A stretch of 54,892 nt of DNA from the IMG/VR virus record IMGVR_UViG_2568526312_000015; one strand, 5' to 3'. Below, in pieces: positions 41,143-45,604 of the stretch (its first letter is position 1; the number at the start of each line of letters is the position of its first letter). A program made the position numbers and the translations under genes. The notes under the pieces are model-generated. The model searched no databases, was not told where the DNA came from, and was given only the letters and a program-made list of their open reading frames with translations. Source of the stretch: a virus (lineage: Duplodnaviria; Heunggongvirae; Uroviricota; Caudoviricetes).

Positions 41143-42324
41143 ATGCCTTTAAACGATATGCAGATTCGCCGCGCTAAGCCTGAAGCTAAAGCCTATACAT
41201 TTGGAGATGGGCTAGGGTTGTCATTACTTATAGAACCTAATGGAAGCAAGAGTTGGCGGTTCCGCTATCGCTATGCCGGCAAACCCAAAATGATCTCGCT
41301 TGGTGTTTACCCAACGATCACCCTTGCCGATGCTCGTTCCCGTCGTGATGAAGCTCGAAAACTTGTGGCAGAAGGAAAGAACCCTAGTGAGGTTCGAAAA
41401 GAGCAAAAGCTAGCTATGCAAACAGAGTCAGAGAACGCCTTCGAAAAGATAGCCAGAGAGTGGCATCAACTTAAATCTGCTAAATGGTCGGCGGGATATG
41501 CATCAGACATCATGGAAGCGTTTAAGAACGACATTTTTCCTTATGTCGGAACAAGGCCTGTGGGAGAGATTAAACCGCTAGAGCTGCTGAACGTTCTGCG
41601 TAAAATTGAGAAACGTGGTGCGTTGGAGAAAATGCGCAAAGTGCGGCAGCGTTGCTCCGAAGTGTTTCGCTACGCAATTGCAACGGGTAGGGCGGAGTAC
41701 AATCCTGCGGCTGATCTCTCCAGCGCTCTCGAAGTACACCAATCCAATCATTTCCCATTCCTAAAAGCTGATGAGATACCTGATTTTCTACGTGCCTTAG
41801 AGGGTTACTCCGGGAGTAAGCTTGTCCAGATAGCCACGAAATTACTGATGATTACGGGTGTGAGAACCATCGAATTACGCGCGGCATTATGGCAAGAATT
41901 TGATCTGGATAACGCTATTTGGGAAATTCCTGCTGAAAGGATGAAAATGCGTAGGCCACATCTTGTGCCCTTATCATCTCAAGCGGTAGATTTACTCAAT
42001 GAACTCAAGATCATGACAGGGAACTATCGTTATGTTTTTCCAGGGCGGAACGATCCGAATAGGCCAATGAGCGAAGCGAGTATAAATCAAGCCATTAAGC
42101 GTATTGGGTATGGAGGAAAAGTCACTGGACATGGTTTTCGTCATACCCTTTCTACAATCCTGCATGAGCAAGGTTTTGAGAGTGCTTGGATTGAAATCCA
42201 GTTGGCTCATGTAGATAAAAATTCTATTAGGGGGACTTATAACCATGCTCAATATTTTAGTGGAAGGAAGTCTATGATGGACTGGTACAGTAATTTGATA
42301 TTTGAAAGACTAAAAAGGAGTTAA
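41143..42324 (+). CDS. P4-type tyrosine integrase
   Basis: N-terminal LNDMQIRRAKPEAKAYTFGDGLGLSLLIEPNGSKSWRFRYRYAGK pattern typical of P4-family integrases; C-terminal catalytic region with HGFRHT. Confidence 0.88.
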   Translation: MPLNDMQIRRAKPEAKAYTFGDGLGLSLLIEPNGSKSWRFRYRYAGKPKMISLGVYPTITLADARSRRDEARKLVAEGKNPSEVRKEQKLAMQTESENAFEKIAREWHQLKSAKWSAGYASDIMEAFKNDIFPYVGTRPVGEIKPLELLNVLRKIEKRGALEKMRKVRQRCSEVFRYAIATGRAEYNPAADLSSALEVHQSNHFPFLKADEIPDFLRALEGYSGSKLVQIATKLLMITGVRTIELRAALWQEFDLDNAIWEIPAERMKMRRPHLVPLSSQAVDLLNELKIMTGNYRYVFPGRNDPNRPMSEASINQAIKRIGYGGKVTGHGFRHTLSTILHEQGFESAWIEIQLAHVDKNSIRGTYNHAQYFSGRKSMMDWYSNLIFERLKRS

Positions 42325-42327
42325 TTT

Positions 42328-42744
42328 GTGTCTCAACCACTTTCGGAAATATTGACATGGGATGATGAACAATGGGAGGTATTTGTCCATGATTGGCTTA
42401 TTGTCTGTAAATCAGATGATTACCCGTGGAGCGAACGTTTGGGAGGAGCTGGAGATAAAGGTAGAGACGTTGTTGGATATAAATCGGATCCTAACGTAGA
42501 AGGTTATTCTTGGGATAATTATCAATGCAAACTGTACAAAAAAAGTTTAGGGTTCTCTGATGTTGTAGTTGAGTTTGGAAAACTTATCTATTTTACTCTG
42601 AATGGTGATTATCCCATCCCTCAGAAGTACTTTTTTGTGGCACCCTATGATTTATCTACTACATTTTCTAATTTATTGAAAAATAAAAACGAGCTTAAAA
42701 AAGCAGTCCTTGATTCATGGGATTCAGCAATTTCAAAAAAATAA
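42328..42744 (+). CDS. Mrr-type PD-(D/E)xK nuclease-domain protein (N-terminal part of the candidate effector)
   Basis: GTG start 4 nt after the int stop with an AAAGGAG RBS; motifs GGAGDKGRDVVGY and YQCKLYKK fit the Mrr-catalytic-type GDxGxD...QxK pattern; ends in an A7 run. Confidence 0.6.
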   Translation: MSQPLSEILTWDDEQWEVFVHDWLIVCKSDDYPWSERLGGAGDKGRDVVGYKSDPNVEGYSWDNYQCKLYKKSLGFSDVVVEFGKLIYFTLNGDYPIPQKYFFVAPYDLSTTFSNLLKNKNELKKAVLDSWDSAISKK

Positions 42745-43334
42745 CTAAAAAGATTGATATTCCATTAGATGATGAAATAAAAAAATATATTGAGGATTTT
42801 GATTTTAGTATTTTTTACTCTCTACCCTTATCATTGATTTTAAATGATATTGCAAATACACACCTTTATTTTAAGTACTTTAACGAGCTGTATGTCGTGA
42901 GAATCCCTCCAAATGAAATTCCAACATACAATTCAAAAAAAGAGTCTGTATATGTTAATGCACTGCTTCAAGCCTATTCAGAGCATGGAAATAAAACTTA
43001 TAGTTCTTTCTTAGAGCTTGATGATCCATACAGACGACACTTTAATAATAGTAGAAATGATTTTTATTTTGCATCTTCGCTTGAGGTTTTTGTCCGCGAA
43101 GTATTTAAAGATGATGTATTCAAAGCATTGAAATGTTACATTTCATCTTCAATTGAACCCGTCTTTTATGAAGACCATAATTATGCATTTATTAGGTGTA
43201 ATGCAGTCTTGAAGCAGGCTGTTCTGACACCAATTGCACATTCAGTACTATCAAAAATATGTGAAGCAAATGATAAAAAAGGAATATGCCATCATTTGGT
43301 TAATGATGGTGAAGTAATTTGGACGGTGAGATAA
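42717..43334 (+). CDS. Hypothetical protein; probable C-terminal continuation of the nuclease-domain protein (reached by a -1 shift in the A7 run)
   Basis: Overlaps the upstream ORF by 28 nt in the -1 frame; A_AAA_AAA heptamer at 42735..42741; AT-rich. Confidence 0.5.
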   Translation: MGFSNFKKITKKIDIPLDDEIKKYIEDFDFSIFYSLPLSLILNDIANTHLYFKYFNELYVVRIPPNEIPTYNSKKESVYVNALLQAYSEHGNKTYSSFLELDDPYRRHFNNSRNDFYFASSLEVFVREVFKDDVFKALKCYISSSIEPVFYEDHNYAFIRCNAVLKQAVLTPIAHSVLSKICEANDKKGICHHLVNDGEVIWTVR

Positions 43335-43792
43335 TGGTTAGAATTTATAATTCAAGTTTAGAAGTGGCATGTCGAATGGCGAAAGTGCTCGTCGCTATTT
43401 ATCCTTCTTCATTAAGCCTTGAACGGCTTATTTGTTTTGATTTTATTTTAGTAAATCTTAAGGATTTTTTACCTGAAGAGATTAGTCTTCATCCTCCAAT
43501 ACCCCGTAGAGATGCTCAGTTAGCCCTAAAACGAGAGATTGTTTTAGAATCATTGGCTTTGTTGCAAGGCTATGAACTAGCCTCAAAAATTTATACACAT
43601 CGTGGTTTTGTATATAAAGCTTCTGAAAAAACATATGCATTTACAAATTCTCTACATAATGAATATGTTGCGCAGATGGAGCATAATATAAATTTGGTGG
43701 TTAAGTTATATAGTGATATTCCTGATGAGCAGTTGCAATCAATTATAAAAAATAAAATTGGCAAATATGATATGGAATTTAATTATGAATGA
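43334..43792 (+). CDS. Hypothetical small protein (middle component of the candidate system)
   Basis: 152-aa ORF; ATG overlaps the upstream stop (TAATG) and its own stop overlaps the next start (ATGAATGA). Confidence 0.5.
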   Translation: MVRIYNSSLEVACRMAKVLVAIYPSSLSLERLICFDFILVNLKDFLPEEISLHPPIPRRDAQLALKREIVLESLALLQGYELASKIYTHRGFVYKASEKTYAFTNSLHNEYVAQMEHNINLVVKLYSDIPDEQLQSIIKNKIGKYDMEFNYE

Positions 43793-44417
43793 CAATTTTT
43801 TTACGTTCAGAAAAATAAAGGTAACCGGATTCAATAAATTAGATGCTATAATTGAATTTGGTTCTAAATTGACTATTTTATATGGTGGTTCTGACTCTGG
43901 AAAAACATACATATATTATTTGATTCGATATTTATTAGGGAGTGAAAAACTAAAAAATAAAGATATCGATCATGCTCAAGGTTATGATTTAGCCTATCTG
44001 GAATTTAATTTTCAAGGTAGGGTAATGACAATTGAGAGGTCTCTTCAGGATAGCGCCCATTACAGATTATATGATTCGAGCATTGAAAATGTTAGTGAAG
44101 CTAATCTGTTGATGGTTTTTTCCAAAAGTGCTTCGTCTAAAAAGAGTTTTTCATCATACTTTTATGGTAGGTTGAATTTCAAAGAGGCTAAAGTAAGAAC
44201 AAACTTAAGTAATACTCTTCATAAATTTAATCTTAATAATGTTTTTGAATTTTTTTGTATTGATGAATTAAGAGTGTTAACTGAGAAGTCGTTAATTCTT
44301 TCTGATATTCCTAGCGAGGAGACAAAAAGAAAGTCTGAATTTAAATTCCTTTTAACTCAGAGAGATGATACTAACTCCTTAGCAGAAAAACCAAATAAAA
44401 AAGCAAGATATTTTTAA
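43785..44417 (+). CDS. SMC/ABC-type ATPase, N-terminal head (Walker A)
   Basis: FTFRKIKVTGFNKLDAIIEFGSKLTILYGGSDSGKTYIYYL: SMC/RecF-like N-terminus with P-loop GGSDSGKT; ends at an in-frame TAA. Confidence 0.6.
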   Translation: MNDNFFTFRKIKVTGFNKLDAIIEFGSKLTILYGGSDSGKTYIYYLIRYLLGSEKLKNKDIDHAQGYDLAYLEFNFQGRVMTIERSLQDSAHYRLYDSSIENVSEANLLMVFSKSASSKKSFSSYFYGRLNFKEAKVRTNLSNTLHKFNLNNVFEFFCIDELRVLTEKSLILSDIPSEETKRKSEFKFLLTQRDDTNSLAEKPNKKARYF

Positions 44418-45038
44418 AAAAATCAAATTGCAAATATTTATGAGGAATTGAAAGCGCAATTAATTTATCCTGAATATGATCAAGTCATTGTTTCAAGAGA
44501 ACTTGAGAAAGTAGAGCAAGATATTGAATCATCGAAAGATATATTGAAAGGTATTGTTGATGCACTTGATGATAAGAAGCAATTATTAAAAGAGTTAAGT
44601 GATGAATTATATTCAATCAGTGACAGGGAAAAATACTTATCATTACTCATTGAAAGATTTAGTCTTCTTAAAGACCAATACTTTATAGATCTACAAAGAA
44701 TAGATGTTGTATCACAGGCGAATTTCTATTTAAATAATTTTGCAGATATTTATTGTGAGTTCTGTAATACACCGCAAAAAAAAGAAAATGAAATATCATA
44801 TGATGATTGTTTTTTGTCGTGTAATGCAGAAAAATTGAAAATCAAAAGCCAGCTGAAAGGATTAATTGAATCAATCGGATCTAATGTTCGCGAACATGAA
44901 TTAATTATGTTAAGAAAAAATGATGTTAATGAAATTTATCAATCAGAAAAAAGTGATTTTAAGACGTTAGAAGATAAAAATATAAAACAATACATTCATC
45001 TCTTGAATCACTTTATGAATATAAAGACAATCTTTTAA
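44418..45038 (+). pseudogene. Coiled-coil middle segment of the same SMC/ABC-type ATPase (separated only by an in-frame TAA; no ATG start)
   Basis: Same frame as 43785..44417; reading frame open immediately after the TAA at 44415..44417; helical heptad-rich sequence. Confidence 0.5.
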
Positions 45039-45604
45039 TGGATCACACAAAACATAGCATTCTATCTTCATTACAAGATAAAGAAGATGATGTTGACGAA
45101 CTTAAATACTCCGCCGAGGACTTTGACTCCTTAACAGTAGCTGATTTGTATGATATAGAAATAGCGATGCAAGACTTTTTGAATGATATAAATTTTGAAA
45201 ATTCTAAAGATAACAAAGTGCGATTTGACGAAGATACATATGACTTTAATATCAATGGGAAACGCCGAGGAATGTTTGGTAAAGGTACCCGTGCAGTAAT
45301 GCATGCTATATTTACCATTTGCTTTGCGGAATTTTTATCAAGAAAAGGGAATCCATTCATTGGATTTGTTGTGCTTGATAGTCCATTAGTGACGCACTTT
45401 GATAAAGATAGAGGGGGTTCTCTATCGGATGTTAATAGCGTCAGTCTCAGTGATTCATTTTATCACGCATTAATCAAAAGGGACTATAATTTCCAGATTG
45501 TAATTCTTGAGAATAAAGGTCCGACGTTCCAAATAAAAATTAATGATGCAAATAAAATCCATAACTTAAATAAGAATGGAAGCTCTGGTTTTTATCCTGT
45601 TTAA
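45038..45604 (+). CDS. SMC/ABC-type ATPase, C-terminal head (signature-like and Walker B)
   Basis: GKGTRAVMHAIFTI (signature-motif-like) then FIGFVVLDSPL (Walker B) about 25 aa later; TAATG overlap with the preceding segment. Confidence 0.55.
   Translation: MDHTKHSILSSLQDKEDDVDELKYSAEDFDSLTVADLYDIEIAMQDFLNDINFENSKDNKVRFDEDTYDFNINGKRRGMFGKGTRAVMHAIFTICFAEFLSRKGNPFIGFVVLDSPLVTHFDKDRGGSLSDVNSVSLSDSFYHALIKRDYNFQIVILENKGPTFQIKINDANKIHNLNKNGSSGFYPV

Follow-up and report, generated by a model that had tools for sequence, protein, structure and literature searches.

Decay in place of a short Lamassu defence operon in the P4-like satellite Sp2 of Escherichia coli O157:H7

Why should an operon that specifies three proteins in its intact relatives, of about 335, 152 and 604 amino acids, read as six open reading frames (ORFs) in Escherichia coli O157:H7? 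The operon in question occupies positions 42328-45604 of a stretch of 54,892 nucleotides, IMG/VR virus record IMGVR_UViG_2568526312_000015 (hereafter the window), and is the cargo of the P4-like satellite prophage Sp2. An earlier, sequence-only reading of this DNA had recognised a nuclease, an ATPase and a detached C-terminal ATPase head among the ORFs, and had offered three accounts of the breaks between them: inactivation by three lesions, sequencing errors at homopolymers, or programmed frameshifting at a run of seven adenines. Judged from profile and motif matches, the cargo is a short (type II) three-gene Lamassu (ABC-3C) system with an Mrr-type effector, in the gene order lmuA-lmuC-lmuB. 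The evidence assembled below leads, with little room for doubt, to the conclusion that this Lamassu is dead and still decaying, and that the process is ordinary gene decay.

The genes and their conserved motifs are as follows.

42328..43334, plus strand: lmuA pseudogene (Mrr-type nuclease domain, linker and CTD6 oligomerisation domain), split by a frameshift; assigned from PADLOC, Pfam and full-length homologues of 334-337 amino acids.
42454..42531, plus strand: conserved nuclease core of the LmuA N-domain, D43, D47 ... Q66-C67-K68, still intact; from invariant columns in a 20-sequence alignment.
43334..43792, plus strand: lmuC (ABC-3C middle component 2), ORF intact; Pfam MC2 PF20288, 5.4e-30; PADLOC LmuC PDLC03871, 2.9e-36.
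43785..45604, plus strand: lmuB pseudogene (SMC/Rad50-like ABC ATPase) in three pieces; from tiling by the PADLOC LmuB profile and from intact orthologues of 604 and 608 amino acids.
43884..43907, plus strand: LmuB Walker A, GGSDSGKT, read from the translation; fits the Gx4GK[S/T] motif described for LmuB.
44754..44765, plus strand: LmuB CxxC zinc-hook CEFC at the coiled-coil apex, read from the translation; such a hook is described for short LmuB.
45365..45382, plus strand: LmuB Walker B, FVVLDS, read from the translation; the short-Lamassu form hhhhD[Q/S/T/E].

The roles first given to the nuclease, the ATPase and the C-terminal head are borne out by both Pfam and PADLOC profiles. Read as a single fused protein, LmuA matches the PADLOC LmuA profile PDLC03852 over residues 3-333 (8e-89), the first ORF accounting for profile positions 10-140 and the second for 141-333; Pfam CTD6 PF20282 (ABC-3C) matches the second ORF, 42717-43334. 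The three pieces of lmuB correspond in order to positions 3-199, 210-412 and 428-608 of the 610 positions in the PADLOC LmuB profile PDLC03863, with Pfam AAA_23/SMC_N on the ORF 43785-44417 and DUF3732 on the ORF 45038-45604; intact LmuB from Xenorhabdus matches PADLOC LmuB at 1.2e-118. A scan of the six ORFs against NCBIfam gave no match. Two of the features that define a Lamassu are thus recognisable, namely an LmuC between effector and ATPase and, by homology only as the gene is not intact, an SMC-like LmuB of about 600 residues with Walker A, coiled coil and Walker B. The third, an effector and a C-terminal domain (CTD) joined in one LmuA polypeptide, is lost at the A7 run. Since lmuA is split here, yet forms one ORF in all of the 82 orthologous loci described below, the locus is best regarded as a pseudogenised, not a functional, member of the family.

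The interruptions themselves, with the junction that marks the last of them, were placed as follows.

42735..42741, plus strand: break 1, an A7 run with a 1-nucleotide deletion relative to the A8-equivalent ancestral reading (…WDSAISKKITKK…); from a gap-free alignment to 19 orthologues.
44415..44417, plus strand: break 2, a nonsense TAA that a T>A change at 44416 produced from TTA (Leu); TTA/Leu is found in Xenorhabdus, Yersinia, O55:H7, O157 493/89 and LSU61.
44978..44992, plus strand: break 3 in its true position, a 1-nucleotide deletion shifting lmuB to the -1 frame; from the tblastn frame switch and the stop at 44975-44977.
45036..45040, plus strand: TAATG, an out-of-frame stop about 15 codons past the deletion, overlapping an internal Met codon; from the reading frames and tblastn.

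At break 1, both sequence and alignment confirm what had been noticed from the letters alone: the nuclease ORF (42328-42744) ends at a TAA straight after the A7 run, and a -1 shift there enters the next ORF, which runs on to 43334. The -1 (A8-equivalent) reading gives '...WDSAISKKITKKIDIPL...', which aligns without gaps to 19 full-length homologues with the consensus 'WD.SISKKIT', so that the A7 site is where relatives read ISKKIT. The true start of lmuA is preceded by AAGGAG; the ATG at 42717 that opens the second ORF has no Shine-Dalgarno sequence, and the first residues of that ORF are out of frame relative to orthologues. The run itself is not statistically remarkable given the composition of the cargo, whose G+C content is 31% against 49% for the whole window, and which holds eight A/T runs of at least seven nucleotides in 3.3 kb.

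Break 2 was likewise correctly described: an in-frame TAA at 44415-44417, falling after residue 210 of LmuB, with the frame open beyond it and no ATG for the next segment. That segment, of 206 residues, has no in-frame Met before residue 164, and the only nearby start is a TTG at 44448 abutting GAGG.

Break 3 required relocation. The frame change had been placed at the TAATG of 45036-45040, and although this junction is present and the ORF beyond it does lie in the -1 frame, the position is off by some 45-60 nucleotides. When intact LmuB proteins from Xenorhabdus and Yersinia were compared by tblastn, the frame switched at about 44988-44990, where precisely one nucleotide is lacking and the amino-acid alignment shows no gap. 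A TAA at 44975-44977 closes the -1 frame, which opens only after that stop, so the deletion lies within about 44978-44992, probably, to judge from the local sequence, in the A5 run at 44976-44980 or the A4 run at 44984-44987. The last 15 or so codons of the second lmuB segment are then out of frame relative to orthologues. The TAATG is a by-product of the upstream deletion and not a coupling signal: its ATG at 45038 aligns inside intact LmuB ('LLMDHTKH' against 'LSSDYTKH') and has no Shine-Dalgarno sequence upstream.

The most direct evidence on the nature of these breaks comes from orthologous operons. A search of 5.8 billion proteins, with the fused (repaired) LmuA as query, returned 157 homologues, nearly all of 330-380 amino acids and covering 97-100% of the query. 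At the level of the operon, 82 loci were compared by a blastp-based ORF count, these being loci from Xenorhabdus and Yersinia plus 80 more, with one genome per species. In every one of the 82, lmuA is a single uninterrupted ORF across the junction, and lmuB is a single full-length ORF in 73; among the other nine, some loci end just past lmuC and one has a two-ORF lmuB. The nearest of the loci are three-gene operons: Xenorhabdus bovienii (locus L003) has one encoding proteins of 335, 152 and 604 amino acids, and a P4-like satellite of Yersinia bercovieri (L006), with the same int ... ogr layout, encodes proteins of 334, 157 and 608. The sequence-only reading had pointed to such orthologues as the place to look, on the grounds that the same breaks elsewhere, each followed by a well-supported start codon, would indicate genuinely separate genes. 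What is found elsewhere is single continuous ORFs; the breaks do not recur with good starts among the 82 loci, and the secondary ORFs of the window lack a credible ribosome-binding site.

Three further loci show irregularities of their own. In X. bovienii GCA_022095095.1 (L004, 8086-8103), lmuB departs from that of L003 one codon beyond the point equivalent to the O157 TAA ('ARSFL|'), and the contig breaks off 12 nucleotides past the resulting stop, possibly because of an insertion sequence (IS) near the same point, though this may be coincidence. A second Yersinia P4-like locus (L007, Logan SRR23697549) has a 1-nucleotide deletion in lmuB at the equivalent of position 8618 of L006, giving ORFs of 405 and 148 amino acids in place of 608, which reflects either independent decay or an error of short-read assembly. 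The closest match in species-representative genomes, Serratia fonticola GTA-SR07 (L013; LmuA 57%), has a full lmuA; its lmuC match stops at residue 121 of 152 and there is no detectable lmuB downstream, so that it too may be a degraded copy.

Could the breaks be errors of sequencing or assembly at homopolymers, the real genes being intact? Two of the three sites do fall within or beside A/T homopolymers, where some platforms are prone to error, but the distribution of the alleles refutes this account. The segment 42300-45650 (3.35 kb) has 100% identity with the E. coli strains Sakai and EDL933 and with hundreds of other O157:H7 chromosomes. Among 5,426 complete E. coli genomes, 308 match it, with 309 records, all at 99% identity or more. 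Break 1 was queried in those 5,426 genomes with an A8-repaired probe and break 2 with a 181-nucleotide TTA-repaired probe. The best identity of any genome to the A8 probe is 99.0%, the value that denotes A7, and it is reached by 299 of 308 records, including O55:H7 strains CB9615 and DEC5A; the remaining nine give weaker or truncated matches, and the A8 allele occurs in none of the 5,426 genomes. The TTA probe is matched at 100% by exactly 10 records, namely seven labelled O55:H7 (RM12579, USDA5905, DEC5A, DEC5B, DEC5D, DEC5E and TB182A), the unserotyped FDAARGOS_946, O157 493/89 and LSU61. CB9615 also has TTA, accompanied by neighbouring single-nucleotide polymorphisms (SNPs). A further 294 records show one mismatch to this probe, the value given by confirmed TAA carriers such as EDL933. 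Some 300 complete genomes, sequenced independently in many laboratories and on many platforms, Sakai and EDL933 among them, thus share the breaks; break 2 is a base substitution and involves no indel; and TTA in O55:H7, 493/89 and LSU61 against TAA in typical O157:H7 follows the phylogeny. The chance that the genes are really intact is accordingly negligible.

The history of the lesions can be read from an alignment of operon DNA from four lineages: the window, O55:H7 RM12579, O55:H7 CB9615 and O157:H7 LSU61. All four agree in break 1 and in the stretch containing break 3, which dates both to before the split between O55:H7 and O157:H7. Break 2 is absent from the three relatives and from the other TTA strains, and is therefore derived on the branch to typical O157:H7. 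Between breaks 2 and 3 lies one further variable feature.

44947..44952, plus strand: polymorphic A-run, A6 and in frame in the window; from the four-lineage alignment, A6 matching the Xenorhabdus protein.

This run is A6 in typical O157:H7 and in 493/89, A5 in RM12579 and CB9615, and A7 in LSU61, each variant leading to a new premature stop; the homopolymer is hypermutable, and independent events have shifted it in either direction. The A7 of LSU61 was considered as a reversion of break 3 and rejected, as an immediate TGA results and the run is in frame as A6.

Additional lesions are private to individual strains. In CB9615 (L012), lmuB has gained a T in the T7 run from 44250 and carries CAA>TAA at 44424, three codons past the site of the O157 TAA. 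In the O157:H7 strain M1300706002 (L093, 2268-3481), IS1203 lies within the N-terminal piece of lmuB, and in two 6535 strains the match is split in the same way over an IS1203 transposase. In strain 2159 (L011, 993-3148), the integrase and the N-terminal ORF of lmuA have given way to IS3- and IS5-family elements, to the left of about 42704, and seven other records have a truncated match like that of this strain. An unrelated gene for a TrlF-family ATPase lies upstream of the IS elements in strain 2159. Across the O55:H7/O157:H7 clade, at least nine independent disruptive events have struck this 3.3-kb operon. Moreover, 13 of the 15 SNPs among the four lineages are nonsynonymous, as expected in the absence of purifying selection. 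Genes disrupted relative to intact orthologues, lesions specific to lineages and no excess of synonymous change are together the marks of pseudogenes. The inactivation that had been one of the three original accounts is supported on all these grounds: continuous ORFs in orthologues, fixed lesions, and more lesions in sister lineages.

Several points nevertheless weigh against decay of the whole operon. The closest LmuA is 67% identical, so the ancestral A8 is inferred and not observed; an intact allele closer than this was not found in the search of 5.8 billion proteins, and there is none in the 5,426 complete E. coli genomes. The closest LmuB is 57% identical, and the exact base deleted at break 3 is for that reason a reconstruction. 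Of the 14 SNPs counted in a test of their spread among the four lineages, lmuA and lmuC (about 1.46 kb) hold 2, where about 6 would be expected from their length (binomial p=0.019), and lmuB (1.82 kb) holds the other 12; this deficit could hint at residual constraint, and is treated here as chance or local variation in rate and not as evidence of function. Finally, slippage at the A7 run may yield some full-length LmuA at a sub-percent level, without known function. From these last points a less complete form of inactivation can be put together, in which slippage of ribosome or RNA polymerase at A7 restores some LmuA, or the LmuA-CTD6 fragment and the intact LmuC keep a residual role, which may for example be interference with an incoming related Lamassu. 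Either would account for the fewer changes in lmuA and lmuC than in lmuB (2 of 14 SNPs, p about 0.02), but we give this reading only a slender chance.

One rival account is that programmed -1 frameshifting, or transcriptional slippage, at A_AAA_AAA (42735-42741) produces a functional full-length LmuA. The site is formally what such a mechanism uses, since (TC)A_AAA_AAA followed by TAA is an X_XXZ_ZZN heptamer in the zero frame, A-rich like the sites of E. coli dnaX and IS911/IS3; a -1 shift yields exactly the orthologous SKKITKK; A7 is stable in about 300 genomes, in which lmuA has acquired no further disruptive lesion; and some slippage is known to occur at A7 tracts (PMC4066793). What is missing is everything that would make the shift programmed. 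Unlike dnaX and IS911/IS3 (A_AAA_AAG), the site reads A_AAA_AAA and has no 3' stem-loop or pseudoknot, no conservation in orthologues and no functional partner. For the 89 nucleotides downstream the folding energy is -5.9 kcal/mol (z=+1.46), weaker than that of 187 of 200 shuffled sequences, and neither a 3' structure in these 89 nucleotides nor a clear Shine-Dalgarno-like sequence upstream of A7 was seen. Without a stimulator, heptamers in E. coli reach at most about 0.5% -1 shifting, or 2-10 times a background of 0.055% (PMC4066793). No split is seen outside the O55:H7/O157:H7 clade, lmuA being contiguous at all 82 loci, so that two ORFs with a slippery site are not conserved; and at the site itself, among the three nearest orthologues, Xenorhabdus has AGT AAA ATA, Yersinia AAT AAA GTG and Serratia CGT AAA ATC, all interrupted A-runs. 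With five A7 runs and one A8 in the cargo, the motif is expected from composition. LmuB, the partner that would have to hold LmuA and let it go, is disrupted in every lineage, and both of the SNPs in lmuA and lmuC are nonsynonymous. Programmed frameshifting at A7, as the sequence-only reading had suggested, is therefore very unlikely.

It might be argued instead that the six ORFs are separate functional genes, a split variant of Lamassu whose domains are made as separate polypeptides. This is how the operon is annotated: the Prokaryotic Genome Annotation Pipeline (PGAP) gives three separate coding sequences for lmuB, and six for the operon in EDL933 and the majority of strains. There is also a clade of short Lamassu without the effector domain of LmuA (Haudiquet et al.), and for heads of SMC/Rad50 type reassembly out of an N-terminal and a C-terminal half is possible in principle. 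But the secondary ORFs have no credible starts, as neither ATG 42717 nor ATG 45038 has a Shine-Dalgarno sequence and the second lmuB segment has only the TTG abutting GAGG; the opening residues of the second lmuA ORF and the closing codons of that segment are out-of-frame junk by comparison with orthologues; the pattern of breaks varies among sister lineages; and activation of the nuclease needs CTD-driven oligomerisation of the same polypeptide. Functional separation of this kind is hardly credible, and a decayed three-gene Lamassu remains by far the preferred reading.

What the lesions would mean for function can be considered in the light of work on intact systems. The mechanism papers studied Cap4-type Lamassu, and transfer of their conclusions to an Mrr-type locus rests on shared architecture. 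In the Cap4-type structures, two SMC-like LmuB protomers in folded form, together with LmuC, keep the C-terminal oligomerisation domain of a single LmuA sequestered. Detection of phage DNA ends or of replication frees LmuA, whose CTD then tetramerises, so that paired nuclease domains degrade DNA and infection is aborted. Forced dimerisation of the N-domain is sufficient for LmuA toxicity, and mutants with a weakened interface between LmuA and LmuCB are hyper-toxic. In the window, loss of one nucleotide from the A-run in the LmuA linker severs the Mrr nuclease domain (138 amino acids) from the CTD6 oligomerisation domain, and the nuclease domain could then no longer be oligomerised. The 1-nucleotide deletion in lmuB falls before the C-terminal ATPase head, with TTA>TAA as an addition in typical O157:H7. 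With the Walker A head, the coiled coil and the Walker B head on separate fragments, no functional sensor should be able to form; and a broken sensor together with a nuclease that is not oligomerised would leave the locus inert and evolving neutrally. The native operon is predicted to be negative in assays of defence against phages or plasmids. Given the toxicity of LmuA once it is released, lmuA may plausibly have been lost first, or together with lmuB, with lmuB drifting afterwards.

The setting of the operon is that of a satellite cargo, bounded on its left by the following gene.

41143..42324, plus strand: P4-type tyrosine integrase of Sp2, the left edge of the cargo hotspot; annotated as intS/integrase in Sakai and EDL933.

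In Sakai the context is annotated 'prophage Sp2, P4-like phage', with the cargo directly 3' of the integrase and 5' of ogr/delta, psu and sid; the cargo therefore occupies the integrase-proximal cargo site of the satellite, and the int-cargo-ogr/delta layout recurs in the Y. bercovieri P4-like locus. The only tRNA gene in the window is a tRNA-Thr (CGT) at 1369-1444, and there is none at the Sp1/Sp2 junction (about 40964), so that on that side the P4-like element does not adjoin an intact tRNA gene. The sole 'plasmid' match to the locus, NZ_CP044147.1 (E. coli O157 AR-0428, 46,899 bp), is probably an unplaced chromosomal fragment. Literature searches by locus tag (ECs0290-0293, Z0325/Z0326) returned nothing clearly relevant.

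Compared with known systems, the operon has the order of effector, middle component and SMC-like ATPase seen in DdmABC of Vibrio cholerae and LmuACB of Salmonella enterica, and differs from both in that its effector is Mrr-like with CTD6, not Cap4 with CTD7. It resembles characterised short Lamassu in its LmuB of about 600 amino acids with Walker A, CxxC hook and hhhhD[S] Walker B, its MC2-family LmuC and its nuclease-CTD LmuA, and differs from them in that lmuA carries one frameshift and lmuB a nonsense codon and a frameshift, both being pseudogenes. X. bovienii L003 has the same three genes in the same order (identity 67% for LmuA, 57% for LmuB), and the operon of Y. bercovieri lies moreover in a P4-like element, at the same int ... 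ogr/delta hotspot; in both, the proteins are continuous. The placement of the cargo between the integrase and the psu/delta end is that of the defence hotspots of P4-like satellites.

Lamassu/ABC-3C systems and these hotspots have already been described, some papers on the hotspots mentioning Lamassu as well, and no new mechanism is involved here; the system is a known one and its decay is ordinary. The consequence for annotation is that ECs_0290 and ECs_0291 (EDL933_RS01510 and EDL933_RS01515) are halves of one frameshifted lmuA, which should be marked as a pseudogene. In Sakai and EDL933 they stand unflagged as a 'hypothetical protein' and an 'ABC-three component system protein'; of the two genes lmuB alone (ECs_0293) is already marked as a pseudogene, and in the Sakai RefSeq record only, with exactly the span 43785..45604. 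The ordered lesions, A7 and the lmuB deletion clade-wide and TTA>TAA in typical O157:H7, serve as lineage markers that fit the stepwise model of descent of O157:H7 from O55:H7. According to a 2026 survey, defence-like genes make up fewer than 1% of P4 pseudogenes, and its authors argued that the systems are exchanged before decay sets in (PMC13586616). Unlike that pattern, the Sp2 system has decayed in place and has been fixed through the radiation from O55:H7 to O157:H7, and the locus is thus a clear counter-example to the reported rule. E. coli O157:H7 and O55:H7 carry a dead Lamassu, which is not to be counted in their defence repertoire.

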